Source: Thermoleophilia bacterium
GTDB lineage: Bacteria > Actinomycetota > Thermoleophilia > RBG-16-64-13
Reading direction: 5' to 3'
Assembly (NCBI GenBank): GCA_040772905.1
Contig: JAXGXJ010000005.1
Span: forward strand, 207,048-271,047
Length of the DNA stretch: 64,000 bases
Positions 17,991 to 39,235 of this stretch are shown here, in pieces. The stretch's first letter is position 1. Each line of letters begins with the position of its first letter. The position numbers were made by a program, and so were the translations under genes. The notes under the pieces are model-generated. The model ran no database searches. It was not told where the DNA came from and worked only from the letters and a program-made list of their open reading frames with translations.

Positions 17991-18000
17991 ACCCGCCGCC

Positions 18001-19340: not shown

Positions 19341-19724
19341 GTGGTGAGCTTCCTCATCCGCTGGGGCGTCAATGCAGGAGCCGTGGCCGTAGCCGCGTGG
19401 CTGGTGCCCGGCATCTACGTGGAGGAGCCCAACGGCGTCTGGGCGGTGCTGCTCGTCGCGCTGGTGCTGGGCCTGGTGAACGCCTTCATCCGTCCGCTCA
19501 TCTCGGCTCTTTCGTGCGGGCTCATCGTGCTGACACTAGGCTTGTTCACCTTTGTCATAAACGCCCTCATGTTCTGGCTGGCGTCCTGGGTGACCACCGA
19601 CCTGTTGGGGTTCGGCTTCCACGTGGACGGGTTCTGGAACGCCCTGCTCGGCTCCCTCATCGTCAGCATAGTGTCGGCTCTCGCCACCACGTTCGTGGGC
19701 AGGGGACGACTGAAAAGACGCTAG
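19341..19724 (+). CDS. 4-TMS phage-holin-family (YvlD-like) membrane protein; start uncertain
   Basis: LGLVNAFIRP...LTLGLFTFVINALM...GFWNALLGSLIVS. Confidence 0.85.
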   Translation: MVSFLIRWGVNAGAVAVAAWLVPGIYVEEPNGVWAVLLVALVLGLVNAFIRPLISALSCGLIVLTLGLFTFVINALMFWLASWVTTDLLGFGFHVDGFWNALLGSLIVSIVSALATTFVGRGRLKRR

Positions 19725-24314: not shown

Positions 24315-25925
24315 TTCGAGAAGCACTTTGCGACTGCGGCCGCCTCTTGATCCACGGTGGCCGTGTCCACCAAGTCTGCCGCCTGTTCCTTCAAGAGGAC
24401 CACCCAAGTGCCGAGGATCTCAGCCGCCGACCCGCTCTCGAAGAGTCTGCTCTTGAGCTGAGCGCTTCTCCTCATACAGCTGCTGCCACTCCGGATTGGC
24501 CTTGAACCGCTCCACCAGAATGTTCGACCTCGCACGCCCCAGCTGGACCCCGCCCCGCGCTGGGGCTCCTGCGTCAGGGATGGCGGCGTCGGGCGCGGCT
24601 GCGTCGGGCGCGGCTGTGTCGGGCGCCGGGACATCGGGTAACCGATCGGTGCTAAGGCCCGGTCGGGCAATCCCACCCGGAGGCTCCGTACCCTCCGGCG
24701 CTTGACCAGCGGACTGCGTCTGACCGCTCTGTGTCGTCGGACGGTCGCCACCGCCCATGCCACCCATCATGCCGAAGGCCAGGTTGTGATCCCACGCCAC
24801 CACCTTGAACTTCTCGACGATAGGATCGTAGTAGAGATAGGAATTGTTACCCATCCCATCGATATCGTCGGCGTTGGCGATGAGATCCTCGAAAGCGAGA
24901 TAAGTGGCGAACGCCTCGATGTCAAGCCGGTTGGGCAACTCGGCGTCGAAGGTAGCGTCGTCGGAGTTGTTGATGAAGTCCAGGAATCCGATGAGCGGCG
25001 TGAGGTCGGCGTTGGTCTTGCCCGCTTCCTGATCGAACACCTCTTCGTACGAATCAGGATCCTCACCGCGGTAGCTGTAATCCCCGGTGCTCTCGGCCTT
25101 GTAGAGCGCACCTTTGACGTCGAATTCTCTGGCCATCCAGACATCGTCCAGATTCTCAACGACCAAGCGCAGATGTGGATCACTGCCGTTCACGCTGAAG
25201 CGCACCGCGATCGCCTGTTCGGACTCCAGCCCTGCGATCTCGAGCAGATCCAGGGCTACGGCCTCGTTCAAGGCGGTCTCAGTCGTGTTGGAGCGCACAC
25301 ACAACTCCACCACACCTTGGTGGTTCTGGCCGTCGACGTTCCGATCGAGGTCGATTAGCCAAGGCAGGCCGGCGGGATCGTCAAAGGATGCGTCGCCGCC
25401 GGGACCACCGAAGCCCTGCCGTTCGCGCCAGCCGTCGCGCGCCGCGACCCGGGTGGTGGTCGTGGTGGCCGCCCCCGCACCAGCAGTGGACGTTCCAGTC
25501 GCTGATGTGTCGCCGAAGGCGGGCACAGTCGAGGCCCCGGCCGCACGACGCAGATTCATCAACGACGAATTGCCCTTGAGGCGCAATCCCACGTTGTCAT
25601 AGATCGCGCCATCGATGATGACGGTGGCCTCTATCCACTCCTTCTCTCCGCTCTCCTCATAGGCTGCGGCCATGCCCGCGTAGTCTTCCTGCTCGTACGA
25701 GACGCTGATCTCGTGGATGAGAGAACTGTCGAGAAGTCCACTCCCCTCCACGGTCTTGGAGCCGCCATGGGTCTCAGCCGATCCCTTGTCGCCGGCGGTG
25801 GTGGCGAAGCCGGAGACAGTACCCGATGATGTGCAACCCGAAGCCACCAGCGTAAGAGCTGAGAGCGCGGCCAAGAGCATCAACCTCATCAGTCCACGCG
25901 AGCGACGACTCGAGACGCTTCTCAT
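24311..25925 (-). pseudogene. CotH kinase-family lipoprotein with apparent frameshift near 24465
   Basis: VASGC lipobox, GLRLKGNSS, NNSYLY, WDHNLAFG; plausible C-terminus continues in another frame to 24311. Confidence 0.75.
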
Positions 25926-26161
25926 CTATCCTCCTGGCTCGACGGCGCAACACCACTCGGGAAGCATAGCGACGCGTCCCTAAGCTGGGCGTAAGAAGAT
26001 GCCGAGCTGAGAGGCGCTCTTTTCTGACCAAGGCCCCACCAGGCCGGCCACGTTCTCGCGGGCGTTAACACCTCCGTGGGCTGACGCATTATCATGGGAC
26101 TCTACCCAAAGGGGCTGGGCACGGTGCCCACGTCTTTTGTCACCGGCACAAGAGGGAACAG

Positions 26162-27598
26162 ATGATCAAGTTCAGCGAGCAGCAACTCAAGGCGCCCAAG
26201 TACCTGCGGCCCGTCTATCTGGTGACGGCCGGCCAATCGAAGTACGGTCGGGCCATCCCCGAGAAGAGGACGGAAGAGCTCTGCATAGACGCCTTCACCA
26301 TGGCGGCCGAGCTTCTGGGCAAGACCCCGGCGGAGCTCAAGCGCTACATCCACTCCTGCTATTACGGCCACTTCGCCGACCACTTCGGCGACCAACTCCT
26401 GGGCGAAGCGGTCATCCACGACCGTCTGGGCCTCGATCCGCTGGGCAACGTGGGCATCAAGTCGGGCGGCGCCACCGGCGGCTCGACGCTGTGGGAAGCG
26501 GCCAAGGCCGTGGCTTCCGGCTACTCCGACTGCGTGCTCGCCATGGGCTGGGAGCGCATGGACGAGGTGCCCACCGACGAGGGCAACTTCCTCATCGCCT
26601 CCGCCGCCGACCGTGACTGGGAATCGCCCATGGGCCAGATCTACACGGGCTACTACGCTGTCATGGCGCAGAAGTACTGGCAGGTGTTCGGCAAAGCCGA
26701 GGCCTCGTTCCGCCGTACCCTGGCCGAGATCTCCGTGAAGCATCACGGCTACGCGCGCTTCAACCCCTTCGCTCACGGCGGCATGGACATCACGGTGGAC
26801 GACGTGCTCATGTCGCCGCTGGTGGCCGATCCGCTGCGCGCCCTCGATGCCTGCCTCATGAGCGTGGGCGCGGCCTGCGCCATCCTCTGCGACGAGCCGA
26901 CCGCCATGGAGCTCACCAAGAACAGCAAGAACCGGCCTCTGCGCATCTGGGTGACCGCGGGGTCCCATACTCTCCGTCCCGCCGACCGGCGTGACATGGA
27001 CATCCCCCTGCTGCCCCACGAGTCCCCCGACCAGTACAAGGATCTGGCCAAGGAGTTCCCGGGTGGCGACCGCTATCCCGGCTTCACCGGCTTCCTCGCC
27101 GCCCGCATGGCTGCCTATTACGGCTACAACATGACCGGCGTCACCGATCCCACCGAGGACTTCGACGTCATCGAGCTTCACGACGCCTTCACCATCAGCG
27201 ACGTGCAGACCTACGAGGACATCGGCATCCGCCCCTACGGCTACGGCCGCGACTACGTGGAGTCGGGCGACTGCTACCACACCAATCCCAAGACGGGCAA
27301 GCCCGGCAAGCTGCCCTCGAACCTCTCCGGCGGCCTGATCGGCTGCATGCACGCGGTGGGGGCCAGTGGCATCATGCAAGTGTTCGAGATCGCCACGCAT
27401 ATCTGGAACCGCTGGGCCGAAGTCCACGGCGACGAGAAGCGGTGGCAGGAATTCGGTCGCCGGAAGCCCGACGATTGGACCGACCTGCAGGTGCAGGGCG
27501 CAAAGCGGGGTCTCTCCATCAGCCACGCCGGCGTGGGGTCGCACGTGACTGCGACCATCCTCATGGATCCCGATCATCTGCTCAAAGAAGACGCGTGA
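26162..27598 (+). CDS. thiolase-fold (SCP2-type) protein lacking the nucleophilic Cys; putative retro-aldolase
   Basis: KSGGATGG where thiolases have xxACASG; NPFAH, ELHDAF, NLSGGL, HAVGASG. Confidence 0.85.
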   Translation: MIKFSEQQLKAPKYLRPVYLVTAGQSKYGRAIPEKRTEELCIDAFTMAAELLGKTPAELKRYIHSCYYGHFADHFGDQLLGEAVIHDRLGLDPLGNVGIKSGGATGGSTLWEAAKAVASGYSDCVLAMGWERMDEVPTDEGNFLIASAADRDWESPMGQIYTGYYAVMAQKYWQVFGKAEASFRRTLAEISVKHHGYARFNPFAHGGMDITVDDVLMSPLVADPLRALDACLMSVGAACAILCDEPTAMELTKNSKNRPLRIWVTAGSHTLRPADRRDMDIPLLPHESPDQYKDLAKEFPGGDRYPGFTGFLAARMAAYYGYNMTGVTDPTEDFDVIELHDAFTISDVQTYEDIGIRPYGYGRDYVESGDCYHTNPKTGKPGKLPSNLSGGLIGCMHAVGASGIMQVFEIATHIWNRWAEVHGDEKRWQEFGRRKPDDWTDLQVQGAKRGLSISHAGVGSHVTATILMDPDHLLKEDA

Positions 27599-27611
27599 GA
27601 GAGGCCCACTC

Positions 27612-28202
27612 ATGAGCTCATACGGACAAGTACAGGTCGTCGACGGTCGCTACAAATTCCGCGGTGATTTCCATCGGCTCGAACAGCACATGCCCATCCG
27701 AGACGCCAACAACGGCTACAAGCTCCTGGGCGTGACCAAGCCGCGGGATATGACCTACGTACACACCTACGGTGGCGAGGCCCCCTTCTTCGAAGCGCTC
27801 TCCCAGGGCAAGCTGCTGGCCACCAAGTGTGAGAACCCCGACTGCGAAGCCAACGGCACCGTCTACCAGCCCTTCCGCATCCATTGCCCCGATTGCCTGG
27901 GTAAGAACACCATCATCGACATGACCCGTCTGGCCAAAGAGACGGGGACGGTGCACACCTTCATGGTGTGCGCCCGGTCCGGCGCGTTCAACGTTCTCGA
28001 CACTCCCATCCGCTTCATCAACGTGCAGTTCGAGAACGTGTCGACCATCCTGATGAGCTACCTGCTCATGGGAGAGCCTTACATCGGGATGCGCGTGAAA
28101 CCGGTGTTCAAGGTATGGAACCCCACCTACACCATCCTCGATCTGTCCTGGGTGCCGGCCGAGACGGCCGCAGATTCGCTGCCGGAGGGCTTCGCCTTCT
28201 GA
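27612..28202 (+). CDS. DUF35 Zn-ribbon/OB-fold partner protein
   Basis: FFEAL..GKLLATKC...C...HCPDC, GTVHTF, IGMRVKPVF. Confidence 0.85.
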   Translation: MSSYGQVQVVDGRYKFRGDFHRLEQHMPIRDANNGYKLLGVTKPRDMTYVHTYGGEAPFFEALSQGKLLATKCENPDCEANGTVYQPFRIHCPDCLGKNTIIDMTRLAKETGTVHTFMVCARSGAFNVLDTPIRFINVQFENVSTILMSYLLMGEPYIGMRVKPVFKVWNPTYTILDLSWVPAETAADSLPEGFAF

Positions 28203-28236
28203 TGCTCAGCGACCCAGGGGGCCGACGGGGCATCAC

Positions 28237-28262
28237 CGACTCCTGCGGGTACGCAGATGTCG
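28237..28262. repeat. 26-bp palindromic repeat, copy 1
   Basis: CGACTCCTGCGGGTACGCAGATGTCG, nested in outer stem 28213-28224/28276-28287. Confidence 0.85.
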
Positions 28263-28433
28263 GCTCAAACCCTGCCGGCCCCCTGGGCGACACTGCGCTT
28301 CAGGTCTTCGTCTGGGGAGGTGTCCCTCTTGCGCCGCTCCCGCGATAGACTGTGATGAAGGCATCGAGGTGGCCGCGCCGTGTCCGGCGTGGCGCGGCCG
28401 GGCCGTCACACTGCCGGACTCACGGAGGGGCGC

Positions 28434-29417
28434 ATGTTGCGGAACTACGAGGCACTCAGCAATGAGGTCAACCTTCTTGGGGTCATCAAGGCGCGAGGGG
28501 TCATCGGCCGCTACCTCAACCGGACCAACCTCACCTACTACTCGGAACTCTCCCGGCTGATGGGGTGTGACGTCTACGTCAAGCACGAGAACCACAACCC
28601 CACCGGGTCGTTCAAGATCCGCGGCGCGCTCAACTTCATCCAGCACATGTCGGGTGAGGAGCTGCAGAGCGGCGTACTGGTGGCTACGCGGGGCAATCAC
28701 GGGCTGGCCATGGCCTGCGCCGGACGTTGGTTCGACGTGCCCATGACCGTAGTGGTCCCGGAAGGCAACAACCCAGAGATCAACCGCATCGTGCAAAGCT
28801 TCGGCGCCGAGCTCATCGTGCACGGCAGCGACTTCTACGAAGCCCAGTCGTACTGTGACGAACTGGTCGACACGGCGGGCTTCTACTACGTGGAGCAGGG
28901 CAACGAACCCGCCATCCTCAACGGTCTGGGCACCATGGGCTTGGAGATCTTCGAATCTCTTCCCGATGTCGATACCATCATCTGCCCCATCGGTGGCGGC
29001 GCAGGTTGCGCCTCGCTCATCAAAGTGGCGCAGGCCCTGGCTCCGAACGTGGAGATCATCGGCGTGCAGCCCGAGCAGGCAGCCGCCTTCCACGCTTCGT
29101 GGAAACAGGGGGAACGCGTGATACTGGAGAGCTCCGCCTCCATCGCCGACGGACTTGCGGCGCGGAGCCCCTTCCAGCTCCCCTATCTCATCATGAAAGA
29201 CCACATAAGCGACGTGGTGCTCGTCTCCGAGGACGAGATCCTCGAGGGCATCCGTCTCTCCCTCCAGGTGACACACAACCTGGCTGAAGGCGCCGGCGCC
29301 GCCGCGCTCGCCGGGGCACTCAAGATCAGCGACCGGCTGGCCGGCAAGAAGGTGGCGATCATCATGTCCGGGGGGAACCTCGATCAGGAGCATCTGCGAC
29401 TGGCGCTCAGTCAGTGA
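28434..29417 (+). CDS. PLP-dependent threonine/serine dehydratase (no ACT domain)
   Basis: KHENHNPTGSFKIRGA, TRGNHG, PIGGGAG, ADGLA, SGGN. Confidence 0.88.
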   Translation: MLRNYEALSNEVNLLGVIKARGVIGRYLNRTNLTYYSELSRLMGCDVYVKHENHNPTGSFKIRGALNFIQHMSGEELQSGVLVATRGNHGLAMACAGRWFDVPMTVVVPEGNNPEINRIVQSFGAELIVHGSDFYEAQSYCDELVDTAGFYYVEQGNEPAILNGLGTMGLEIFESLPDVDTIICPIGGGAGCASLIKVAQALAPNVEIIGVQPEQAAAFHASWKQGERVILESSASIADGLAARSPFQLPYLIMKDHISDVVLVSEDEILEGIRLSLQVTHNLAEGAGAAALAGALKISDRLAGKKVAIIMSGGNLDQEHLRLALSQ

Positions 29418-29444
29418 CCCCGCGAGACGGAGCAGGGCCCTCGG

Positions 29445-29470
29445 CGACTCCTGCGGGTACGCAGATGTCG
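29445..29470. repeat. 26-bp palindromic repeat, copy 2
   Basis: Identical to 28237-28262. Confidence 0.85.
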
Positions 29471-29488
29471 CTCAAGGCGTCGCTGCGG

Positions 29489-29923
29489 CTAGATATGGGT
29501 GAGTCGCGGCCGCGGTAAGAGCAGTTCGGCGCGCCCGGTCTGCACCGTGGTGCCGTCCTGGTTGGTCCAGGTCGACGCGATGACCATGCGGCGCTTGTCG
29601 TCGATCTTCTCCGCCACCTCTGAGACCACCGTGATGGTGTCGCCGATGTGGACCGGGGCCATGAACGAGACCTCCTGGCTCACCTGCACGGCGCCGTCGC
29701 CGCCGATGGCCGACAGGGTACGCGTGATCATGCCCGCCACCAGCAGACCGTGGGCGATGCGCCCGCCCCAGCGAGTGCCGCGCGCGTAGACCTCATCGAC
29801 GTGGATGGGGTTGAAGTCGCCGGCGATGCCGCAGAAGGCGAAGATGTCGGCCTCGGTGATGGTCTTGCTGAACGAACTGCGATCACCGACACGGATCTCG
29901 TCGTATTCGCGCTGCACCGCCAT
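29489..29923 (-). CDS. MaoC-family (R)-specific enoyl-CoA hydratase
   Basis: GDFNPIHVD, RIAHGLL, F.APV.IGD. Confidence 0.9.
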   Translation of the reverse strand: MAVQREYDEIRVGDRSSFSKTITEADIFAFCGIAGDFNPIHVDEVYARGTRWGGRIAHGLLVAGMITRTLSAIGGDGAVQVSQEVSFMAPVHIGDTITVVSEVAEKIDDKRRMVIASTWTNQDGTTVQTGRAELLLPRPRLTHI

Positions 29924-29946
29924 GCTGGATCTCCCTTCGCTGCCGA

Positions 29947-30876
29947 TCACTCAGTGGCTGCCGCCGTTACCGCCTGCTCAGCCGCCTGCCAGTACCGAGC
30001 CCACTTCTCGTCCACCTGCGCCTGGATCTGCTCCACCTGCTCGTCGCCCAGCAAGCGAAAACGCGACTGCGTCTTCAGGTAATCACGCACCGGGGTGAGC
30101 TTTCGTTTCTCCAGCAGCTTCTCCGAGGCACCAGTGAGCCGGAACTGGCCCTTCTCCACCTCGTACAGATCGAAGTAGCCGCTCTCCACGGCCAGTCTAC
30201 CGATCTTGATGCTGTAGCGCGTCTCGAACCCCCATCCGGGCGGGCACGGGGTGTGGATGTGGATGTACTTGGTGCCCTCCAGCGTGAGCGCCTTCTTGAT
30301 CTTGTCGTAGAGATCCAAGGGATAGGCGGCCGAAGCCGTCGCCACGTAGTCGATGCCATGCGCAGCCATGATGGCGGGCACGTCCTTCTTCTGCTGCAGC
30401 TTGCCCTTGATGGGCGTGGTGGTGGTGACGGCGCCGATGGGCGTGGTGCCCGAACGCTGCACGCCCGTGTTCATGTAGCCCTCGTTGTCGTAGCACATGA
30501 ACAGGAATTCGTCGCCGCGCTCGGCCGCGCCAGAGAGCGCCTGGATGCCGATGTCGCTGGTGCCGCCGTCGCCGGCCCAACCCACGACCTTGGTGTGCTC
30601 ACGACCCTGCGCCTTGAGAGCGCTCAGAACCCCGGTAGCGGCGGAGGCCGTGGAGGCGAAAGTGACGTTCAACACCGGCAGCTTGGTGGAACAGACGGGG
30701 AACAACCCCTGCAGTACGGTGAGGCAGCTGGGGGGCACCACCAGGATGGTGTCGGGCCCCAGGGCCTTCACGCCGATGCGATAGGCGATGCTGAGGCCGC
30801 AGCCGGTGCAGGCCCGGTTGCCCGGATGCACCAGCTCTTCTTTGGGCAGGGTGAGGATGGTGGTCTTGGTGCTCAT
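29947..30876 (-). CDS. porB: 2-oxoacid:ferredoxin oxidoreductase beta subunit
   Basis: ACTGCG, GDGG..DIG.QALSGA, DNEGYMNTG.QRS, PCPPGW; substrate not resolved. Confidence 0.88.
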   Translation of the reverse strand: MSTKTTILTLPKEELVHPGNRACTGCGLSIAYRIGVKALGPDTILVVPPSCLTVLQGLFPVCSTKLPVLNVTFASTASAATGVLSALKAQGREHTKVVGWAGDGGTSDIGIQALSGAAERGDEFLFMCYDNEGYMNTGVQRSGTTPIGAVTTTTPIKGKLQQKKDVPAIMAAHGIDYVATASAAYPLDLYDKIKKALTLEGTKYIHIHTPCPPGWGFETRYSIKIGRLAVESGYFDLYEVEKGQFRLTGASEKLLEKRKLTPVRDYLKTQSRFRLLGDEQVEQIQAQVDEKWARYWQAAEQAVTAAATE

Positions 30877-30887
30877 GCGTGCGGCTC

Positions 30888-32087
30888 CTACAGCTTGATC
30901 CCGACCCAGTCGGGACGCTCGTCGGGCGCGCTCGCGATAGCGGCGCGCAGGTCGGCGATGAGGTCGGCGGTGCGGATCTCGCGCCCGCCGATGCCGGCGA
31001 TCATGCCCTTCACGAACGGCACCGGGCCCTTGCCGGCCAGATGCTCGTACAGCGCCGACTTGGTGTCGGACACCAGCGCGCCCTCGTAGCCGTAGGACAG
31101 CGCCTTCTCCATGACCATGACGCCGCGCTTGCCGTCCAGCGCCCGCGCCAGGGCGGCGTCGGGGAAGGGCCGGTACAGACGGACGCCCATGACGCCCACA
31201 GCAATGCCTTCCTCACGCAGCCGATCGATCACATCGTGCAGCTGATAGGTGAGCGAGCCTAACCCCACCACCACATACTCGGCGTCGTCACAGCGATAGG
31301 GCTCGAGCAGGGCATCGCCGCCCCGCCCGAATATCTCCTTGAAACTGTCCTCGGTCTCCTGCGCCACCCGCAGTACGTCACGCAGATCCTCCTGCAAGAG
31401 GTAGCGGATCTCCATGTAGCCATGCGCCATCTCGCCCATGATGTCCATGCGCACATCGGGCAGGGTCACGGTGTTCAGGCTGGCGGGATCCTCGGGATCC
31501 AGCGCGTACGCCGGCTGGAAGGGCTTGATGAAACGAGCCACCTTGTCCTCGTCCGGCACCTCGAAGGGCATGTAGGTGTGCGAGAGCAGATACCCGTCGT
31601 AACACACCATCACCGGGATGCTCACCGTCTCGGCGATGACGAACGCTTTGAGCACGGTATCGATGATCTGCTGATGGTCGCAGCAGTACATCTGTATCCA
31701 CCCCGTGTCGCGCTGCGAGATGGAGTCCTGGTGGTCGTTCCAGATACACCAGGGCGCACCCACGGCGCGGTTGACCACGCACATGACGATGGGCAGCCGG
31801 GCGCCCGCCGCCCAGTGGATCTGCTCGTGCATATAGAGCAGGCCGTTGGCGCTGGTGGCGGTGAAGGCCCGGGCGCCGGTGGAACTGGCCGCGATGCACG
31901 TGGCCAGAGCCGAATGCTCGCTCTCCACGGGTACGTACTGGGCCGTCATCTGACCCGACTCCACGTACTGCGAGAGCTTCTCGGTGAGCGGCGTCTGCGG
32001 CGTGATGGGGTAGGCGGCGATGACTTGAGCGCCGGCCAGCTTCACGCCCATGGCGGCGGCGACGTTGCCGTCTTCGATCACGTGCAC
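30888..32087 (-). CDS. porA: 2-oxoacid:ferredoxin oxidoreductase alpha subunit
   Basis: AAYPITPQT, VESEHSA, TATS..GL, IWNDHQD, RPFP. Confidence 0.88.
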   Translation of the reverse strand: MHVIEDGNVAAAMGVKLAGAQVIAAYPITPQTPLTEKLSQYVESGQMTAQYVPVESEHSALATCIAASSTGARAFTATSANGLLYMHEQIHWAAGARLPIVMCVVNRAVGAPWCIWNDHQDSISQRDTGWIQMYCCDHQQIIDTVLKAFVIAETVSIPVMVCYDGYLLSHTYMPFEVPDEDKVARFIKPFQPAYALDPEDPASLNTVTLPDVRMDIMGEMAHGYMEIRYLLQEDLRDVLRVAQETEDSFKEIFGRGGDALLEPYRCDDAEYVVVGLGSLTYQLHDVIDRLREEGIAVGVMGVRLYRPFPDAALARALDGKRGVMVMEKALSYGYEGALVSDTKSALYEHLAGKGPVPFVKGMIAGIGGREIRTADLIADLRAAIASAPDERPDWVGIKL

Positions 32088-32425
32088 GGACGCACCCCCT
32101 CCACCGAGCAGGCCTCGGCCTCGTCGGCATCGACCACGTACTCGGCCTCGTCGATCATGCTGATGGCCTTGGTGGGGCATTCCTCGGCACAGATGCCGCA
32201 GCCCTTGCAGTACTCGTAGTCGATGGTGGGCGGGACGGTGCGCGAGATCACACAATCCGGGCAGTAGAGCCAGCAGATGAAGCAGGCTTCGGTGCCGCGC
32301 CGCGCCGGCGTGCACTTCTCCAGGTCGATCACCGGGCGCTGCACGCGCCACGAGCCCGTCTTGCCACCGTCGCCGGGCCCGGACAGGCTGTGCGACGTCT
32401 TGTATCGGTATCCTCTGGTGCCCAT
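32078..32425 (-). CDS. porD: 2-oxoacid:ferredoxin oxidoreductase delta (ferredoxin) subunit
   Basis: TGSWR..RPVID..KC, C..C..YCPD, YCKGCGICAEECP. Confidence 0.88.
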   Translation of the reverse strand: MGTRGYRYKTSHSLSGPGDGGKTGSWRVQRPVIDLEKCTPARRGTEACFICWLYCPDCVISRTVPPTIDYEYCKGCGICAEECPTKAISMIDEAEYVVDADEAEACSVEGVRPCT

Positions 32426-32976
32426 CAGGCCTCTCCCACGATGGTGTGCTCGTACGCAAGCCGGGCCGCCTGAGCGTTGGCCTGCGCGTTCTTGCCCTTG
32501 AACTCCGCCTCGATGCCGGCCACCACCAGGTCGAAAGGCACCTCGTCGAAGGCGCGGCACAGCACCCCGATGATGCCCGCGTTCACGCGGCCGTGCGGCA
32601 GCCCCGCCTGCACCGAGAGGGCCGTCACATCGGCCACGGCCAGGCGGGCGTCGCCGAAGTCGTACGCGGACGGCTGTTTCGGCGTGTTGAGGACGATCAG
32701 CCCGCCCGGCTTGAGGCCGGCGGCCACGTCCACCTCGGTCAAGAGCAGATGGTCGAGTACCACCACCATGTCGGGGGTCTCGATGGGTGAGATGTCGTAG
32801 ATCTTCTCCTTCGCCAGCTTCAGCGAGGTGAAGACGGGAGCTCCGCGGCGCTCAGTGCCGAAGGTGGGAGCCATCACCACCCCGGTGTACCCTGACTTGA
32901 AGGCGGCCGCGGCGAAGATCTTCGCCGCCGTGATCGCCCCCTGCCCGCCTCTGCCGTGCCATCTGATCTCGATCAT
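32425..32976 (-). CDS. porG: 2-oxoacid:ferredoxin oxidoreductase gamma subunit
   Basis: EIRWHGRGGQG, FGTERRGAPV. Confidence 0.9.
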   Translation of the reverse strand: MIEIRWHGRGGQGAITAAKIFAAAAFKSGYTGVVMAPTFGTERRGAPVFTSLKLAKEKIYDISPIETPDMVVVLDHLLLTEVDVAAGLKPGGLIVLNTPKQPSAYDFGDARLAVADVTALSVQAGLPHGRVNAGIIGVLCRAFDEVPFDLVVAGIEAEFKGKNAQANAQAARLAYEHTIVGEA

Positions 32977-33084
32977 TCGCTCTTCCTACCGTGTCGCAAA
33001 CTACGCGTGCAGGGTATTCTACTTCCTCTGCGAGTATTTCGGCGCCTGCAGGTGACAGACGGAACTAGAAGAAAGCGGGAGAAC

Positions 33085-34224
33085 GTGGATTTCAAGCTCA
33101 CAGACGACCAACGCATGATCAGGGACATGGTGCGCGACTTCGCCCAGAGCGAGATAGCCCCCGTGGCCGCCGAGATCGACCGCACCGGCGCCTTCCCGGT
33201 GGACATCCTCAAGAAGATGAGCGAGCTGGGCCTCATGGGCCTGCCCATCGCCGAGGAGTACGGTGGGGCGGGCGGCGACTACACCAGCTACTGCCTGGCG
33301 CTGGAGGAGATCACCCGGGCCTGCGGCTCGACCGGTCTCACCTACGAAGCCCACATCTCGCTGGGCTGCATGCCCATCTACTACTTCGGTACCGAGGAGC
33401 AGAAGCAGGAGTACCTGCCGCAACTCTGCAGCGGCGAGAGTATGGGCTCCTTCGGCCTCACCGAGCCCGAGGCAGGCTCCGACGCCGGCGGCACCAAGAC
33501 CACCGCGGTGCTGGAGAACGGCGAGTGGGTCATCAACGGATCGAAGATCTACATCACCAACGCCAGCTACGCCAAGTTCGTCACCATCACCGCGGTCACC
33601 GACAAGGGCAAGGGCACCCGAGGCATCAGCGACATCATCGTGCCCACCGATGCCCCCGGTTTCACGGTGACGGCGGGCTTCGAGAAGATGGGTCTCCATG
33701 GCTCGAACACCACCGAACTCTACTTCGACGACGTGCGCGTGCCCGAGAAGAACCTGGTGGGCGTGCGCGGCGAAGGCTTCAAGCAGTTCCTGGTGGTACT
33801 GGACGGCGGCCGTATCGCCATCGGCGCCATGGGCGTGGGCATCGCCCAGGCCTGCCTGGATGCCTCGCTCAAGTACGCCAAGGAGCGGCAGCAGTTCGGC
33901 CGGCCCATCGGCACGTTCCAGGCCATCCAGTTCAAGCTGGCCGACATGGCCATGAACATCGAGCTGGCGCGGAACATGGTGCTCAAGGCGGCCTGGCTCA
34001 AAGACACGGGCCAGCCTTACGCGCTCGAGGCCAACTATGCCAAGCTCTTCGGCTCGGAGATCGCCACCAAAGCAGCCTTGGAGGCCATACAGATCCACGG
34101 CGGCTACGGCTACATCAACGAGTTCCCGGTGGAGCGCTACCTGCGTGACGCCAAACTGCTCGAGATCGGTGAAGGCACCTCGGAGATCATCCGCCTGGTC
34201 ATCGCCAGGTGTCTGGGGCTGTAG
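33085..34224 (+). CDS. acyl-CoA dehydrogenase (short/branched-chain type)
   Basis: FGLTEPEAGSD, NGSKIYITN, RQQFGRPI, QIHGGYG, IGEGT. Confidence 0.93.
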   Translation: MDFKLTDDQRMIRDMVRDFAQSEIAPVAAEIDRTGAFPVDILKKMSELGLMGLPIAEEYGGAGGDYTSYCLALEEITRACGSTGLTYEAHISLGCMPIYYFGTEEQKQEYLPQLCSGESMGSFGLTEPEAGSDAGGTKTTAVLENGEWVINGSKIYITNASYAKFVTITAVTDKGKGTRGISDIIVPTDAPGFTVTAGFEKMGLHGSNTTELYFDDVRVPEKNLVGVRGEGFKQFLVVLDGGRIAIGAMGVGIAQACLDASLKYAKERQQFGRPIGTFQAIQFKLADMAMNIELARNMVLKAAWLKDTGQPYALEANYAKLFGSEIATKAALEAIQIHGGYGYINEFPVERYLRDAKLLEIGEGTSEIIRLVIARCLGL

Positions 34225-34311
34225 GGACTGACAGGGACCCGGGCTCCCACGCGTTCACCGTGGCAGCCCGGGCGCCCGGGCGCAAGGACGTGCCATCGCG
34301 AAGGAGAGACC

Positions 34312-34443
34312 ATGACGTCGGTGCATGTGGGTTCACGTGACGATCTGCCGGCAGGCGCCATGAAGGCCGTTCAAGCCGGCAGTCACCAGGTGCGCGTCGA
34401 CGCCGACTCCGTTTTCGTGGATGTGGACGATCCCGCCACGTGA
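34312..34443 (+). pseudogene. 43-aa Rieske-ferredoxin-like remnant lacking the cluster-binding core
   Basis: VGSRDDLPAGAMKAV joined directly to VRVDADSVFVDV; SD AAGGAG. Confidence 0.6.
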
Positions 34444-34491
34444 CCGGGTGGCGCGGCGCGGCGTGGGCGCCGACGGTGCGCCGGGCCGCTG

Positions 34492-34851
34492 CTAGAAATC
34501 CATGGGGCAGATATGCCCCTCACGGAGTGCGCGAGCGAAACCGTCGCACGACTCCCTGAACACCTGGTGGTCCAGATACTCCGCCATCTCCTCCATGTGC
34601 TGGCTGGCTTCGTCCAAGATGTTGTGGAAGAGACCAACCTGCTCCTGCGTCATGTGGATGATGCCCACGCCGAAGCACTCCGGGCAACGGAGCAGAACGC
34701 GCCACTCGTCAACGTCGACGCGCTCCCATTCCAAAGGCTGGACGAGGGTCGACGAGCATTCTCCGCAGCTGAAGTCGCCGCGCGTTGTGAGGGCCCAGAG
34801 GCGGGTCTGATCTGACGGCATGTCTGTCCTCGTGGCTCGATAGGCGTCCAC
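34492..34851 (-). CDS. hypothetical CxxC...CxxC zinc-binding protein
   Basis: CGEC...LRCPEC, C-terminal PMDF; SD AAGGAG before GTG. Confidence 0.7.
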   Translation of the reverse strand: MDAYRATRTDMPSDQTRLWALTTRGDFSCGECSSTLVQPLEWERVDVDEWRVLLRCPECFGVGIIHMTQEQVGLFHNILDEASQHMEEMAEYLDHQVFRESCDGFARALREGHICPMDF

Positions 34852-35066
34852 TTCTCCTTGTCGGCAAGACATGCGGATGACCTGAGCGCGGTCTCATCCG
34901 CGGTCTCATCGCGACTCCATGGTTGTAGGAAGGCGCGGTGGGCGCAGGCAGGAACCGTCCAGCTCCGCGCGAACTCATTCCCGTAGGGTCTCTTTGGCAG
35001 CCCCTTCCGTCGGATTTCCACGCTATCCGTACGAACACCGTGTGCTCGTTGCGTCAGGAGGTGGAC

Positions 35067-36332
35067 GTGCTCGATTTCATGCGCGAGTTACTCTCGGTCG
35101 ATGCGAGTCAGGAAGAGACGACCTTCGACAACGTGAGGCTGCTCCTCAGCCACATCCGGGAGCATGGCCTCTACCCTCACTTCCTGACCATCAACGGAGG
35201 CGTCAACGAGCCAGAATTCGAGGCCGAGGGGAGGACGCTCCTTCAATTCGGGGCCAACAACTACCTGAGCATGTCGGAGGATCCGACGGTCAAGGCGGCC
35301 GCCATCCGAGCCATCGAAGAGCACGGGGTCGGCCCCGGAGGCTCACGTCTCATGAGTGGGAACATCGCCATCATCGAAGAGGCTGAGCGCCGGATCGCGC
35401 GTCTGACCGGCATGGAGGACTGTCTCACCTTCCCCACCGGCTACATGGCTAACGTCACCGTATTCCAGACCGTGATGACCCCGTTCATCGGGCGTCTGCC
35501 CTATCGGGTCCAGGATGGGGCCATCTTCATCGACGAGTTCGTGCACGGCTCCATCACCGACGGATGCAAGCTCTCCGGCGCGCGCGTGGTCAAGTTCAAG
35601 CACAACGACCTGAGAGATCTGCGAGCCAAACTCGATCAGAACGAGAGCGCCTCCAACAAGCTCATTGTCACCGAAGGCGTCTACTGCCTGGAAGGCGAGA
35701 TCATCGACATCCCCGCCTACATCGAAGTGGCCCGCGCGCACGAAGCCAAGCTCATGGTGGACGACGCCCACGCCATCGGCGTGATCGGGACGCGAGGCGG
35801 AGGGTCGCCCGACCATCATGACTGTGCCGACGGCATCGACATCCTCATGGGCTGCATGGACAAGGCCATGGGCGGCACCGGCGGGTATCTGTGCGGCCGC
35901 AGAGACCTAGTGGACTTCTTGCGCATCGCCGCCAGCTCGAGCGTGCTCTCCTCGGCCCTCACCTGTGCCATGGCCGGAGCCATGATCGCCGCCATCGATC
36001 TCATCGAGACGGCGCAGGAACGGCGTGAAGGCTTGGCCCAGAAATCACGCTACCTGCGCGAAGGACTGCAGCGCCACGGTCTCACCGTGCTCGGCCCCGA
36101 TTTCCTGCCGTCTGTGCCTCTGTTGGTGGGAGACGAAGCTCTTGGAGTAGCCTTCGCCCACGGGCTGCGAGAGCGAGGCATCTTCTGTCCGGTCATGCGC
36201 TGGCCGGCGGTCCCGGTGGGTAAGGCCCGCCTGCGCCTGAGCCTCATGGCCCGGCATGAACAGCACCATCTGGACGCCCTCATCAAGGCCTGCGGTGAGG
36301 TGGGCCGCGAACTGGGAGTGAGCATCGGCTGA
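35067..36332 (+). CDS. PLP alpha-oxoamine synthase family (AONS/KBL/SPT-like)
   Basis: FGANNYL, GSRLMSG, TGYMAN, FKHND, DDAH, DKAMGGTGG, ARLRLS. Confidence 0.85.
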   Translation: MLDFMRELLSVDASQEETTFDNVRLLLSHIREHGLYPHFLTINGGVNEPEFEAEGRTLLQFGANNYLSMSEDPTVKAAAIRAIEEHGVGPGGSRLMSGNIAIIEEAERRIARLTGMEDCLTFPTGYMANVTVFQTVMTPFIGRLPYRVQDGAIFIDEFVHGSITDGCKLSGARVVKFKHNDLRDLRAKLDQNESASNKLIVTEGVYCLEGEIIDIPAYIEVARAHEAKLMVDDAHAIGVIGTRGGGSPDHHDCADGIDILMGCMDKAMGGTGGYLCGRRDLVDFLRIAASSSVLSSALTCAMAGAMIAAIDLIETAQERREGLAQKSRYLREGLQRHGLTVLGPDFLPSVPLLVGDEALGVAFAHGLRERGIFCPVMRWPAVPVGKARLRLSLMARHEQHHLDALIKACGEVGRELGVSIG

Positions 36333-36472
36333 ACGCCATGAGGACGCGGCCGTCACTCCTGATCTCGCGACACAGCCCGCGCTCAAGCTAAGTCACCCCT
36401 GGGCCGAAACACTCCATGAGGGACATTTTCGGCGGCGCCCCTGGGCACCGACCGCGTCGATAGGTGTTGCCC

Positions 36473-39235
36473 ATGGCATGGCAGTCCAATCCGTACGTGT
36501 ATCTCATGCTCGCGGCCGGCTTCTTCTCCGTGGGTGTGGCCTACTTCACTGTGCGCCGGCCGCGGGTGCCGGGATCCATCCCGCTGGTGGTCATCACCTG
36601 CGTGGGAGCCTTCTGGGCCTGGACCGCGGGCCTCGAGCTCGCCTCAGCCGGCTTCGCGAATGCGGTCTTCTTCCACAAGCTGTCGTTCTTCGCCATGGAG
36701 GCGGTCGGCATCGCGTGGTTCGTCTTCGCCGCCGAGTATTCGGGCCGCGACCGTTGGATGACCTCACGCAGGCTGCTGGGCATGATGGCTCTCCCTCTCG
36801 TCACCCTGGTGTTGGTGTGGACCAACGGATGGCACGGGCTGATGTTCGAATCGTTACGCATGGAGGCGGCGGGCGACTACATGCTCCTGCGCAAGGGTCC
36901 CGGCATCTGGTGGTGGATCGACTCCGTCTACACCTACGGCCTTCTGCTGAGCGGCGTCGCCATATTGGGCCACATGTTCATCCGCGAGTACGGTCTCTAT
37001 CGCCGTCAGATCCTGGCCCTGCTGGCGGGCGTGGTGGTACCCATGGCCGCCGATGCCTTCTACGTGGGCACGCAGGGGGCGGAGCCCGTGAACATCGCTC
37101 CCGCGCTGTTCGCTTGGGTGGGGCTCGCCCTCTATTGGGGCTTCACCCGCTATCAGCTGCTCGACGTCACCCCTGTGGCGCGGGAGTTCGTGGCCGAGCA
37201 CATGGGTGACGCCCTCCTCGTCACCGACACCGAGGACCGGATCACGTACTTCAACCCCGTGGCCGAGGAGCTCTTGGGAACAGACCTCCGCGCCGCGGTG
37301 GGCAGACCCGTGGCCAGCATCATGGCCGACCTCCCCGGCATGTTCCCCGTCTACGAAAGAGCCCGCTGGGCCAGAGAGGGGATGTCGCAGGAATGGGAGT
37401 ATCTCGGTCGCTACTACGACGGCAAGATCTCTGCACTTCGCGACAGCCGCGGCCGCATCCGCGGGACCATCCTGGTACTGCGCGACACCACCGACCGCAA
37501 GACCGCCGAACTGGCCCTGGACGAGGCTCGGCGTGAGCTGGAAGACCGAGTGGTGGAGCGGACCGCCGAGCTGGCGGCTGAGAAGGAGCACTTGGCCCGA
37601 CTCAACACCCTGGCCGTGGAGATAGCCCGGTGCGGCACCAGTACCGACGTGCTCAACGCCGGCGTGCGCCTGGCCTGCGAAGCCGTGGGGTGCAACGAGG
37701 GTACTCTGTGGCTTCGCTCCCGCAAGGGGAAGATGCAGCTCCTACGCAACCACAGCCTGGGCCGCGTCACCTGGCAGGCCCTGGAGGAACTCTTGCAGAC
37801 CTCGCACGAGGTGGAGATCGCCATGGCAGAGGGCACGGCTGTGTGTGTGGGAGTCGAGCGGCAGGCTCAGGCCGAGTCCGGCGGTGAGGGCGGCGTGGCA
37901 CTGGTGAAGCTCTCGAAGCATCCTGGGTTCAGCCGCGTGCTGGTGGTGCCGTTGATCTCGCGAGGGCTCAATCTTGGGGCCCTGTGCCTATTGAGTTCCG
38001 ACCCGCTGTTCGGGACCCACGGCGAGACCACGCTTCTGGCCGGCGCGGTGGCCTCGCAGATCGCGGTCGCGCTGGAGAACGCCCGGCGTTACGAGGACGC
38101 CCAGTTCCTGGCCGAGCGCGACTCACTCACCCGCCTGCTCAACCATCGTGGCATCAGCAAGCGACTGGACGAAGAGGTGGCTCTTTGCGAGGGCACGGGC
38201 GGTGTCTTCGGCTTGGTCATGATCGACGTTGACAACTTCAAGCTCTTCAACGACGCCTACGGGCACGTGGTGGGCGACCGGGTGCTCCAGGGCGTGGCCC
38301 GCATCCTCACGACCTCGTTGCGCCGCTCGGACGTGGTCGCCCGTTACGGCGGCGACGAGTTCATCGCCGTCCTGCCCGACACCGACGCCGAAGCAGCCGT
38401 GCAGCTGGTGGAGCGGGTACGCAACTCACTGGAAGACAGCCCGTTCCTGGTAGATGACGGCCGCACCATCCCCCTCAAGATGAGCTACGGCGTGGCAACC
38501 TACCCCTACGACGGCCACAGCGCCGCTGAACTCCTTGCCGCCGCCGACGCCAACCTCTACCGCTCCAAGCGGCACGGAGGCGACTTCATCACCGTCTCGG
38601 GCAGCGACGACAGTCATCGCCCTGTCAGCATGGGCTCGTTCTCGGTGCTCGACGGTCTGGTGACCACCGTGGACAACAAGGACCACTACACCCGTCGACA
38701 CTCCGACAACGTGACCGAGTACTCGCTTGCTCTCGCCTCCAAGATGGGCATGTCATTGGACACCCAGCGCTCGTTGCGGGTGGCGGCACTCCTGCACGAC
38801 GTGGGCAAGCTGGGCGTGCCCGACCACATACTGCGCAAACCATCGAACCTCACCGAGGAAGAGTTCGAGATCATCAAGAACCACGTGACTCTGGGCGAGC
38901 TCATCATCCAAGGGATCCCCAACCAGGAGGAGGTGCTGAGCGCCGTCAGCACCCACCACGAGCGCTGGGACGGGAAAGGCTACCCCCGCGGCCTCAAAGC
39001 CGAGCAGATCCCGCTGCTGGGCCGGATACTGGCCGTCACCGACGCGTACTCGGCCATGACCACCGATCGCCCCTACCGCAAGGCCCTTACTCCGCAGGAT
39101 GCCAAGGCCGAACTGAAGCGGGCATCAGGCACGCAACTCGATCCCGAGATAGTCAGCGTGTTCCTGGAAGTGCTGGAGGACGAGGAAGCCCGTCACGAGT
39201 CGCGCGTCGCCGTCTTCGCCTCGGGTCGCTTCTAG
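36473..39235 (+). CDS. HisKA_7TM-PAS-GAF-GGDEF-HD-GYP c-di-GMP enzyme
   Basis: 7TM N-terminus (TNGWHGL), RRSD I-site plus YGGDEF, LHDVGK and HHERWDGKGYP. Confidence 0.9.
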   Translation: MAWQSNPYVYLMLAAGFFSVGVAYFTVRRPRVPGSIPLVVITCVGAFWAWTAGLELASAGFANAVFFHKLSFFAMEAVGIAWFVFAAEYSGRDRWMTSRRLLGMMALPLVTLVLVWTNGWHGLMFESLRMEAAGDYMLLRKGPGIWWWIDSVYTYGLLLSGVAILGHMFIREYGLYRRQILALLAGVVVPMAADAFYVGTQGAEPVNIAPALFAWVGLALYWGFTRYQLLDVTPVAREFVAEHMGDALLVTDTEDRITYFNPVAEELLGTDLRAAVGRPVASIMADLPGMFPVYERARWAREGMSQEWEYLGRYYDGKISALRDSRGRIRGTILVLRDTTDRKTAELALDEARRELEDRVVERTAELAAEKEHLARLNTLAVEIARCGTSTDVLNAGVRLACEAVGCNEGTLWLRSRKGKMQLLRNHSLGRVTWQALEELLQTSHEVEIAMAEGTAVCVGVERQAQAESGGEGGVALVKLSKHPGFSRVLVVPLISRGLNLGALCLLSSDPLFGTHGETTLLAGAVASQIAVALENARRYEDAQFLAERDSLTRLLNHRGISKRLDEEVALCEGTGGVFGLVMIDVDNFKLFNDAYGHVVGDRVLQGVARILTTSLRRSDVVARYGGDEFIAVLPDTDAEAAVQLVERVRNSLEDSPFLVDDGRTIPLKMSYGVATYPYDGHSAAELLAAADANLYRSKRHGGDFITVSGSDDSHRPVSMGSFSVLDGLVTTVDNKDHYTRRHSDNVTEYSLALASKMGMSLDTQRSLRVAALLHDVGKLGVPDHILRKPSNLTEEEFEIIKNHVTLGELIIQGIPNQEEVLSAVSTHHERWDGKGYPRGLKAEQIPLLGRILAVTDAYSAMTTDRPYRKALTPQDAKAELKRASGTQLDPEIVSVFLEVLEDEEARHESRVAVFASGRF

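Follow-up and report, generated by a model that had tools for sequence, protein, structure and literature searches.

A DUF35-partnered thiolase-fold protein without the nucleophilic cysteine, linked with an acyl-CoA dehydrogenase in several bacterial phyla: a possible short-chain acyl-CoA aldolase

Background

Two enzymes of steroid side-chain degradation, Ltp2 and Sal, are retro-aldolases with the fold of thiolases. According to the study that describes them (PMC12329534), both carry Gly at the position of the thiolase nucleophile, both are partnered by a DUF35 protein, and both act after an acyl-CoA dehydrogenase (ACAD) and a MaoC hydratase. Here we analyze a protein that resembles them in several of these respects and that is encoded in a 64,000-nt stretch of DNA from a Thermoleophilia bacterium (Actinomycetota; GenBank assembly GCA_040772905.1, contig JAXGXJ010000005.1, positions 207,048 to 271,047), which as a whole will be referred to as the window. 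The gene of this thiolase-like protein opens a cluster extending from 26162 to 34224, which also encodes a DUF35 protein, a threonine/serine dehydratase-like enzyme, a 2-oxoacid:ferredoxin oxidoreductase (OFOR), a MaoC hydratase and an ACAD. An initial annotation had proposed that these genes form a pathway in which 3-hydroxyacyl-CoA is cleaved by a retro-aldol reaction.

The same study (PMC12329534) describes the Gly at the nucleophile position for CtSal, and equates the motif YDHF of Ltp2 with YDCY of Sal and with HDCF of thiolases, the corresponding motif of SLP being YDCF. It also states that Sal requires Tyr302 and Cys304 of YDCY, and that the cysteine-less TbSLP decarboxylates malonyl-CoA at a very low rate, an activity that Sal did not show. 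In archaea, the ketothiolase/DUF35 pair of Sulfolobus acidocaldarius binds a MaoC-family (R)-hydratase/dehydratase in a system for short acyl-CoAs, as reported in a preprint (bioRxiv 10.1101/2024.07.05.601840). Our full-text search of the literature, which covered main texts, yielded papers on PhlABC, on the steroid aldolases, on the archaeal complexes and on a streptococcal HMGS/ACAT/DUF35 complex, but none on the family to which the thiolase-like protein belongs. Source annotations name the members of this family acetyl-CoA acetyltransferase or "thiolase domain-containing protein". What appears to be new, judging from the sequences, is a DUF35-partnered, cysteine-less thiolase-fold protein outside steroid catabolism, with a different active site.

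Results

Loss of the nucleophile in a highly conserved thiolase-fold protein

The thiolase-like protein (478 aa; 26162..27598, + strand) comprises the Pfam domains Thiolase_N and Thiolase_C_1. In HMMER alignments to the true thiolases 7yvy, 6esq and 6hsj (the last being the SCP2-thiolase of zebrafish), the column of the nucleophilic Cys is occupied by Gly103 of the motif KSGGATGG, and HDCF of thiolases aligns with HDAF (H340-D-A-F343); the other active-site loops contribute His397 (in GCMH) and the segment S454-H455-A-G. Conservation was assessed in a close-family alignment of 115 database proteins and the 80 loci of the neighborhood sample described below, 195 of 201 sequences being kept after a length filter. 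Gly103, H340-D-A-F343, His397 and His455 are each present in 195/195 sequences, and so are Cys371 and Cys231, while Cys395 of GCMH is found in 189 and replaced by Asn or Thr in the other six. His397 is nearly invariant also in a 54-sequence alignment. The initial annotation had noted both the Gly at the nucleophile position and HDAF, and these substitutions proved to be characteristic of the whole close family. HDAF is not diagnostic of the cysteine-less state on its own, because the Pyrococcus thiolase 7yvy combines it with the nucleophilic Cys, as do several Cys-bearing representatives. In the wider cysteine-less clade, position 395 is Gly, Met, Gln, Val, Phe, Ala or Tyr; since Cys395 is neither kept there nor fully conserved in the close family, the known catalytic loops hold no conserved substitute nucleophile. 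Set against the features of a DUF35-associated thiolase, the protein has the fold, the catalytic-loop His and the DUF35 partner, and lacks the nucleophilic Cys and the Cys of HDCF. These residues indicate that it cannot be an ordinary thiolase.

Close relatives are encoded in the genomes of at least 411 species of a species-representative genome set. The 194 sequences compared, which represent several phyla, are 76-92% identical to the query, the best 120 database matches (76-85% identical over the full length) likewise come from several phyla, and 233 of the 478 positions are at least 98% conserved in the close family. Between the same loci, the thiolase-like protein is ~82% identical and the ACAD ~54%. 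The NCBIfam model NF004982 (PRK06365, "thiolase domain-containing protein") matches over its whole length (positions 1-430 of 430; E 4.5e-205) with 681.7 bits against a cut-off of 695; as this is 13 bits too low, the protein is a close relative and not a certified member. No function is attached to this NCBIfam family. A search of 1.84 billion cluster representatives yielded 3286 relatives at E <= 0.001. The best 150 included 86 full-length representatives, within which sequences with GG(A)TGG, most of them with HDA(F/Y) and most with His455, separate from the Cys-bearing thiolases. In a quick maximum-likelihood tree of 80 of these 86 rows (six odd rows were dropped), all 46 Cys-bearing rows fall into one clade with 99% support, and the query clade and several other deep lineages of the Gly type fall outside it. 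As the cysteine-less proteins thus form several deep lineages, the trait is old and selected, and not the result of decay.

The AlphaFold model of the thiolase-like protein (pLDDT 94.6, pTM 0.94) was compared with known structures using Foldseek. The archaeal DUF35-type thiolases 6et9/6esq and 7yvy came first (TM 0.91-0.93 on the target), followed by the cysteine-less ST0096 and then by SCP2-thiolase, BbsB and PhlC, and the top 30 matches were all thiolase-fold chains. The ESM Atlas returned thiolase-named clusters only.

An obligatory DUF35 partner

The gene of the stand-alone DUF35 partner (196 aa; 27612..28202, + strand), whose adjacency the initial annotation had pointed out, starts 14 nt after the thiolase-like gene. 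Its product scores 23.1 bits with PF01796 (cut-off 27.1), and its DUF35 matches in the PDB are 3irb_A (E 3.4e-5) and 6esq_E (E 0.023). It is conserved from end to end, an N-terminal extension of ~50 aa included, and has an OB fold and a Cys4 zinc ribbon (C73, C78, C92, C95); the four zinc-ribbon cysteines are invariant in 26/26 aligned partners, among 71 invariant columns. The DUF35 gene directly follows the thiolase-like gene in 77 of 80 loci, the three exceptions being cut by contig ends, and it is an obligatory partner.

Gene linkage across phyla

The neighborhood sample of 80 loci comprises 59 from other phyla and 21 actinobacterial ones. An ACAD, ~53-56% identical to that of the window, is directly adjacent in 38 of the 59 non-actinobacterial loci (20 downstream in the same direction, 18 upstream and divergent), and seven loci with room on both sides lack it. 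An XRE-cupin regulator lies 5' of the thiolase-like gene in 34 loci, and the genes of a two-subunit CoA-transferase that matches 3-oxoacid CoA-transferases only weakly follow it in 7 of the 80; the remaining neighbors in other phyla are unrelated housekeeping genes. OFOR, MaoC and dehydratase homologs at least 61% identical to those of the window occur near the thiolase-like gene in actinobacterial loci only, and these three are linked with it only in that lineage. The counts among the 80 loci are 18 for PALP, 10 for PorB and 7 for MaoC, apart from three weak matches (28-32%) in the loci L041 and L057. The conserved linkage expected by the initial annotation therefore stands for the thiolase-like, DUF35 and ACAD genes, which are joined in other phyla and around the 41% identical paralogs described below, and for OFOR, MaoC and dehydratase it is confined to the actinobacterial lineage.

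Linkage in the family of the source organism

We searched 41 genomes of the window's family with the thiolase-like protein, ACAD, PorB, the dehydratase and MaoC. The thiolase-like gene is whole or nearly so in 15 of them, which belong to four genera, and fragmented in one (G124); another, G151, has two paralogs with 41% identity, and 24 genomes have no match at E <= 1e-40. Outside this family, the gene was found in 0 of 124 genomes of the same class. An ACAD ortholog (at least 84% identity) is present in all 15 genomes with the intact gene, fragmented in G124 and absent from the 25 others. The PorB ortholog is found in the 15 genomes and G124, and in addition in G152, which lacks the thiolase-like gene; the dehydratase is found in the same 16 and in G022. 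MaoC is encoded in 11 of the 15 and in G124, in three placements: after porB, after the dehydratase gene in the thiolase-like operon, or directly before the ACAD gene. This shuffling of MaoC inside a persistent cluster is a stronger sign of linkage than the genome counts. Linkage within the family is thus borne out, with the thiolase-like, DUF35 and dehydratase genes, porGDAB, MaoC and ACAD together in 15 genomes (16 if G124 with its frameshifts is included).

G124 belongs to the same genus as the source organism and has the whole cluster (L085, G124:C1:96000-114000), with ACAD, porG, porA, dehydratase and thiolase-like genes each split over 2-4 frames and with intact porB, porD, MaoC and DUF35 genes. 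We considered this locus as a case of joint decay of the thiolase-like gene and ACAD and dropped the idea, as several genes are frameshifted alike and an assembly error is as likely.

The two paralogs of G151 are cysteine-less as well (GGGATGG, HDAY, HAGTG), and each has a DUF35 relative encoded just downstream. One of them is then followed by genes of an ACAD and OFOR subunits. The second cluster (L082, G151:C1:2068000-2087999, 6043-19525) includes two class-IV aminotransferases, PanB, porA/porB, a crotonase and an ACAD, together with a GltD-like Fe-S flavoprotein oxidoreductase and a 426-aa protein without Pfam match (16183-17463). No 3-hydroxyacyl-CoA dehydrogenase is encoded in the G151 paralog clusters, and the second of them looks like a branched-chain amino-acid module devoid of that enzyme.

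The other enzymes of the cluster

All genes named by the initial annotation were found at this locus. The ACAD gene (379 aa; 33085..34224, + strand; three ACAD domains) is divergent from porG, as described, across 108 bp, with its start probably at the GTG at 33085 and not at 32956. The best PDB match of the protein is Bcd of Clostridioides (5ol2_C, 422.8 bits), compared with 283 bits for human isovaleryl-CoA dehydrogenase (IVD, 1ivh), and it is nearer to Bcd and short-chain acyl-CoA dehydrogenases (SCADs) than to isovaleryl-, 2-methylbutyryl- or isobutyryl-CoA dehydrogenases. Its catalytic Glu lies in IGEGTSE, and IGEGTS is present in 45 of 50 linked ACADs; isovaleryl-CoA dehydrogenases carry the catalytic Glu elsewhere. 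The linked ACADs are thus predicted to be of the butyryl-/short-chain type.

The genes of the OFOR are arranged in the operon porG-D-A-B on the - strand, which ends with MaoC as initially proposed. The gamma subunit PorG (32425..32976; PF01558) scores 148.7 bits with TIGR02175, over the cut-off of 81.1. The delta subunit PorD (32078..32425) is a ferredoxin with two [4Fe-4S] motifs that are evident in the translation, CFICWLYCPDC and CKGCGICAEECP. The alpha subunit PorA (30888..32081; POR_N and PFOR_II) was placed at a GTG start that forms a GTGA overlap with the porD stop, and the TPP-binding beta subunit PorB (29947..30876; PF02775) matches NF008818 (VOR beta type) with 397.7 bits against a cut-off of 405, and NF008819 (PorB) with 365 bits. 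A 91-aa open reading frame (ORF) at 32973-33248 (- strand) was rejected as porD, since Cys motifs are missing from it and it shadows the 5' region of the ACAD gene; the window has many such shadow ORFs, owing to its high G+C content. The last gene, MaoC (153 aa; 29489..29950, - strand; PF01575), overlaps the porB stop by 4 nt and encodes a PhaJ-type (R)-specific enoyl-CoA hydratase, with the PhaJ (R)-hydratases 5cpg and 1iq6 as best PDB matches and the hydratase motif Asp45/His50 invariant in 6/6 sequences. A search of the source genome with the window MaoC returned this single copy.

Between the DUF35 and MaoC genes lies that of the dehydratase (28434..29417, + strand, in an ORF from 28380), a TdcB-type threonine/serine dehydratase-like enzyme dependent on pyridoxal phosphate (PLP) and devoid of an ACT domain. 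Its probable start is the ATG at 28434, preceded by GGAGGGG. The protein scores 255.9 bits with PALP and 291 bits with NF004771 (cut-off 317), and its best PDB match is TdcB (2gn0). The absence of a 3-hydroxyacyl-CoA dehydrogenase from the cluster, on which the initial annotation had laid weight, was upheld: a domain scan of the window proteins found no 3HCDH or short-chain dehydrogenase/reductase (SDR) domain in 24.4-36.3 kb. An SDR that follows ACAD in one relative (L084/L021) was considered as the missing dehydrogenase and rejected, as the ortholog in the window's genome is on another contig and other loci lack it. No HMG-CoA synthase domain was found among the window genes or among the frequent neighbors in the 80 loci.

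The source genome

The source genome has 2.64 Mb and is 99% complete; the G+C content of the 64-kb window is 65%. The closest public genomes to the window are of uncultured anaerobic Actinomycetota, and near-identical DNA is present in wastewater, sludge and biogas-fermenter sequencing runs of 12 studies. The genome has eight POR_N matches, namely two single-chain frames of PFOR size, four alpha subunits of multi-subunit enzymes (that of the window included) and two weak ones, as well as six genes of tungsten-type aldehyde:ferredoxin oxidoreductase (AOR). The AOR and POR_N matches on contigs C4 and C6 fit a ferredoxin-centered, amino-acid fermenting lifestyle. It also encodes one Cys-bearing SCP2-type thiolase beside a 3-hydroxyacyl-CoA dehydrogenase, two EtfAB pairs, and both IlvC and IlvD. 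No candidate for HMG-CoA lyase or methylcrotonyl-CoA carboxylase was found in it; of the HMGL-like matches, two are in frames of 582 and 615 aa that are probably LeuA-type synthases, and one lies beside the single large carboxyltransferase of the genome.

Signals, transcripts and flanking genes

A consensus scan revealed a promoter-like element (TTAACA, a 16-17 nt spacer, and CATTAT or TATCAT; 26065..26095, + strand) ~70 nt 5' of the thiolase-like gene. A box of the TATCATA/TATTATA type is found within 120 nt 5' of this gene in 19/19 actinobacterial loci with a placeable start, no start having been found in two of the 21 loci compared. The leader of ~65 nt after the element holds, before the ribosome-binding site, a perfect 7-bp inverted repeat (TGGGCAC-G-GTGCCCA, 26116-26130), the sequence of which is not conserved among the actinobacterial loci. 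A search of 25800-34600 against Rfam gave nothing notable, the sole match being to a miRNA family with E 0.73, and terminator-like signals are no more numerous than in shuffled sequences. Metatranscriptome contigs from two runs of one study match parts of every gene in 24.3-36 kb with a word depth of 2-6, and one of them spans the junction of the thiolase-like and DUF35 genes (27564-27780); as such contigs also cover the upstream CotH gene and DNA carry-over is possible, the coverage is not proof of expression. A third RNA run gave only pieces of 18-31 letters or poor matches.

The gene directly 5' of the thiolase-like gene encodes the CotH kinase-family protein (501 aa; 24420-25925, - strand) and adjoins it in none of the 80 loci. 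A BioF/Kbl-family PLP-dependent acyltransferase (34938-36332, + strand), encoded 0.7 kb past the ACAD gene, is likewise near the thiolase-like gene in 0/80 loci; its best NCBIfam matches are bioF and glycine C-acetyltransferase, both below cut-off. Next comes a 923-aa sensor protein (36464-39235, + strand) with a 7TM receptor domain and PAS, GAF, GGDEF and HD-GYP-type HD domains. On the other side, some 10 kb before the cluster, lie the genes of an ABC transporter of the branched-chain amino-acid type (10809-15718, - strand; two ATPases, a permease and a binding protein), which may bear on the substrate, and a Mutator-family (IS256-like) transposase is encoded at 2321-3568 (+ strand; PF00872, 489 bits).

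Discussion

Proposed function

Any function proposed for the thiolase-like/DUF35 pair has to account for four observations: the cysteine is lost, the partner is obligatory, conservation is extreme and the genes are linked. With the nucleophile lost but fold, histidines and partner retained, covalent thiolysis drops out, and the most likely chemistry is that of a CoA-thioester enolate, without a covalent acyl-enzyme. Within this chemistry the aldol reaction is rated highest because the only characterized thiolase-fold enzymes of the Gly type with DUF35 partners are retro-aldolases that act after ACAD and MaoC, as would be the case in the window cluster, which lacks a dehydrogenase. By analogy, we tentatively propose as the best fit a reversible aldol/retro-aldol reaction of the pair on a short 3-hydroxyacyl-CoA, where C4-C5 substrates are favored because the ACAD is of the Bcd type and the hydratase of the PhaJ type. 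The two proteins would together form one enzyme, which would not be a thiolase and would act through the enolate of the CoA thioester without forming an acyl-enzyme, giving a carbonyl compound (most simply acetaldehyde) and acetyl- or propionyl-CoA. The enzymes working with it would be the butyryl-CoA-dehydrogenase-type ACAD and, in the actinobacterial lineage, the PhaJ-type (R)-hydratase, so that the succession of ACAD, hydratase and aldolase known from the cleavage of steroid side chains would recur, with no 3-hydroxyacyl-CoA dehydrogenase involved. Acyl-CoA derived from 2-oxoacids would be fed into the same pool, or drawn from it, by the VOR-like OFOR and the threonine dehydratase. The six AOR genes of the source genome mean that aldehydes can be handled.

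Several observations speak against this proposal. By alignment, His340 and Ala342 appear to replace the residues known to carry out aldol chemistry, namely the Tyr that serves as base and the Cys or Tyr that serves as acid; the two stand at the positions of Tyr302 and Cys304 of Sal in 195/195 sequences. The likeness to Ltp2-type aldolases suggested by the initial annotation does not extend to catalysis, since with HDAF both the Tyr base of YDHF/YDCY and the Cys that acts as acid in Sal are missing. In the Foldseek ranking, true thiolases precede both aldolases, with Sal in place 31 and Ltp2 in place 33. Outside the actinobacterial lineage the conserved operon has no hydratase, the frequent neighbors there being only the XRE-cupin regulator and the ACAD, and within the family MaoC is missing at E <= 1e-30 from 4 of the 15 genomes with the thiolase-like gene. 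The four genera in which the cluster persists may be one clade, so that the genome counts are not independent and may reflect a single inheritance event. In G022 the dehydratase persists alone, in a different syntenic context and with the rest of the cluster missing, and a search with the window protein found it to be the only threonine dehydratase-like gene of the source genome; it may therefore simply serve isoleucine synthesis, for which ilvC and ilvD are at hand.

If the pair is an aldolase, it follows from the absence of the known aldolase residues that its catalytic residues are new, and His340, His397 and His455 are candidates by virtue of their positions in the catalytic loops. Such a His-based site would be unlike those of the two thiolase-fold aldolases known so far, which have Tyr/Tyr and Tyr/Cys dyads. 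A bolder version of the proposal, which we consider speculative and on the unlikely side, is that in many anaerobes, at least 411 species having the pair in their genomes, an aldol route independent of thiolase and based on this new site connects (R)-3-hydroxyacyl-CoA with acetyl- or propionyl-CoA and an aldehyde. In the forward direction, 3-hydroxybutyryl-CoA derived from crotonyl-CoA would be split into acetaldehyde and acetyl-CoA, and electrons would leave at the level of ferredoxin via AOR instead of as NADH. In the backward direction, an aldehyde and an acyl-CoA would be joined into C4-C5 chains, and neither the uphill Claisen step nor a 3-hydroxyacyl-CoA dehydrogenase would be required. 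We also considered a new route to isoleucine (threonine to propionyl-CoA, aldol reaction with acetaldehyde, 2-methylbutyryl-CoA and reductive carboxylation) and rejected the need for it, as ilvC and ilvD are present.

Alternative explanations

Enolate chemistry need not lead to aldol cleavage, and the pair could decarboxylate malonyl-, methylmalonyl- or glutaconyl-CoA, or could isomerize or epimerize a short acyl- or enoyl-CoA that the neighboring ACAD makes or uses. The loss of the nucleophile with retention of the histidines fits such a role equally well, and so does the conserved operon outside Actinomycetota, where a hydratase is not included; the CoA-transferase found in 7 of the 80 loci would suit a dicarboxylate such as glutarate. 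The linked ACADs, however, score 402-464 bits with the acryloyl-/butyryl-CoA type, versus 293-337 with the non-decarboxylating glutaryl-CoA dehydrogenase (cut-off 470), and a decarboxylase needs no hydratase, yet one is kept in the actinobacterial lineage and in the G151 paralog cluster. The findings on cysteine-less relatives (PMC12329534) can be read either way, as TbSLP does decarboxylate malonyl-CoA, but slowly, and Sal showed no such activity. On balance we regard a decarboxylase or isomerase as rather unlikely. More serious, though still doubtful, is the view that the genes of the cluster are neighbors that do not share a pathway, with a self-contained thiolase-like/DUF35/ACAD module next to OFOR, MaoC and dehydratase genes for ordinary amino-acid fermentation and isoleucine synthesis. 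It would explain why close homologs of the latter three accompany the thiolase-like gene in actinobacterial loci only, why PorB occurs in G152 without it and the dehydratase in G022 on its own, and it agrees with the eight POR_N matches, which make the window OFOR one of many in the genome. Against it, the genes have stayed together through rearrangements, with MaoC in three operon positions, and the paralogous cluster of G151 has independently joined OFOR, ACAD, a hydratase and aminotransferases.

The remaining alternatives appear much weaker. A thiolase or acyltransferase with another nucleophile is very unlikely: Cys371 and Cys231 are invariant in the close family and Cys395 is nearly so, only two residues before the catalytic-loop His397, but Cys395 is replaced in 6/195 sequences and variable in the wider cysteine-less clade, Cys371 is missing from the G151 paralogs, and the position of Cys231, which is Cys in 6esq and 6hsj and Ala in 7yvy, is not among their known catalytic residues, whereas the Gly at the nucleophile position is itself invariant. 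We give similarly little credence to a leucine shortcut, the example chosen in the initial annotation, in which cleavage of 3-hydroxyisovaleryl-CoA to acetone and acetyl-CoA would replace methylcrotonyl-CoA carboxylase and HMG-CoA lyase. This tertiary alcohol is not oxidizable and a lyase is the only way on, as for the substrate of Ltp2 (established chemistry); the genome has no candidate for either enzyme to be replaced, and the OFOR beta subunit is nearest to the VOR model. The example nevertheless fits poorly, since the linked ACADs resemble Bcd and SCADs and have the Glu at the canonical place (IGEGTS in 45/50, and in the window), no leucine-pathway gene is among the frequent neighbors in the 80 loci, and a full-text literature search for 3-hydroxyisovaleryl-CoA, acetone and acetyl-CoA together found nothing. 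Least probable, in our opinion, is a non-catalytic scaffold or a regulatory subunit, for instance of the ACAD. In its favor, none of the known catalytic Cys or Tyr residues appears to be present in the protein, a scaffold role of DUF35 proteins is on record for several complexes, and the conservation of the thiolase-like protein far exceeds that of the ACAD from the same loci. Its most conserved parts, however, are the active-site loops, with GGATGG, ELHDAFTISD, SGGL...H.VGA.GIMQ and SHAGVGSHVT invariant or nearly so, and a mere scaffold would not need such conservation.

Implications

Because members of the family bear thiolase-type names in annotations, metabolic reconstructions of anaerobes from sludge, sediment and peat count a thiolase that, by its sequence, cannot be one. 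Linked as it is to an enzyme of the butyryl-CoA dehydrogenase type, the family is, at ~82% identity across phyla, among the most conserved acyl-CoA proteins in our experience. If the proposed short-chain acyl-CoA aldol-lyase activity is true, it would represent a new C-C bond reaction in anaerobic fatty-acid and amino-acid metabolism, it would alter the balance of butyrate formation, chain elongation and syntrophic oxidation, and 3-hydroxyacyl-CoAs could be made or cut with a small, soluble aldolase. The contribution of the window is that it shows the pair embedded in a full gene set for 2-oxoacid, acyl-CoA, enoyl-CoA and hydroxyacyl-CoA, which has persisted through rearrangements in one actinobacterial lineage.

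Comparison with known systems

The best sequence matches of the thiolase-like protein are the archaeal thiolases of Methanothermococcus thermolithotrophicus (6esq/6et9; E 9.4e-30) and Pyrococcus furiosus (7yvy; E 5.9e-31), with 26-27% identity. The protein shares with them the four loops of the active site, the GH-loop His and the His-Asp pair of HDxF, as well as a DUF35 partner encoded by a gene of its own. The thiolase-like protein differs from them in having Gly for the nucleophilic Cys, a length greater by ~90 aa, conserved insertions near 253-307 and 412-445, and His455 in the last loop, and unlike in the archaeal thiolase/HMG-CoA synthase/DUF35 complex, no HMG-CoA synthase gene is present in the window cluster. 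In the "archaeal fatty acid synthase complex" of Sulfolobus acidocaldarius, a Claisen condensation takes place and a ketoacyl-CoA reductase is needed, whereas the window cluster has neither the Cys nor a reductase gene. ST0096 of Sulfolobus tokodaii (4yzo), to which no function is given in the title of its entry, is likewise without the nucleophilic Cys, with Ser aligned to Gly103 and HDMA to HDAF; it takes Foldseek ranks 6-10, and is shorter (373 aa) and ~22-23% identical.

With Ltp2-ChsH2(DUF35) of Thermomonospora curvata (6ok1), a retro-aldolase of the steroid C3 side chain, the protein shares the thiolase fold without catalytic cysteines and the DUF35 partner, and the locus shares the order ACAD, MaoC hydratase, lyase, with no 3-hydroxyacyl-CoA dehydrogenase among them. 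The similarity is remote (E 7e-7; 19% identity in Foldseek), the base Tyr294 of YDHF is replaced by His340, and Ltp2 has a second catalytic Tyr, Tyr344. Furthermore, DUF35 and MaoC are separate proteins here, in contrast to the fusion of DUF35 to the hydratase in ChsH2, and the host is an anaerobe and the context not that of steroid catabolism. Sal-Shy(DUF35) of Comamonas testosteroni (9myr), an aldolase of the bile-acid C5 side chain, is a closer match (E 3.9e-15) that also combines a DUF35 partner with Gly in place of the nucleophile; the zinc site of its DUF35 is Cys3His, whereas that of the window partner is Cys4. Taken together, the sequence comparisons and the structural model place the thiolase-like protein in neither the Ltp2 nor the Sal aldolase family and, by fold, nearer to the archaeal DUF35-type thiolases.

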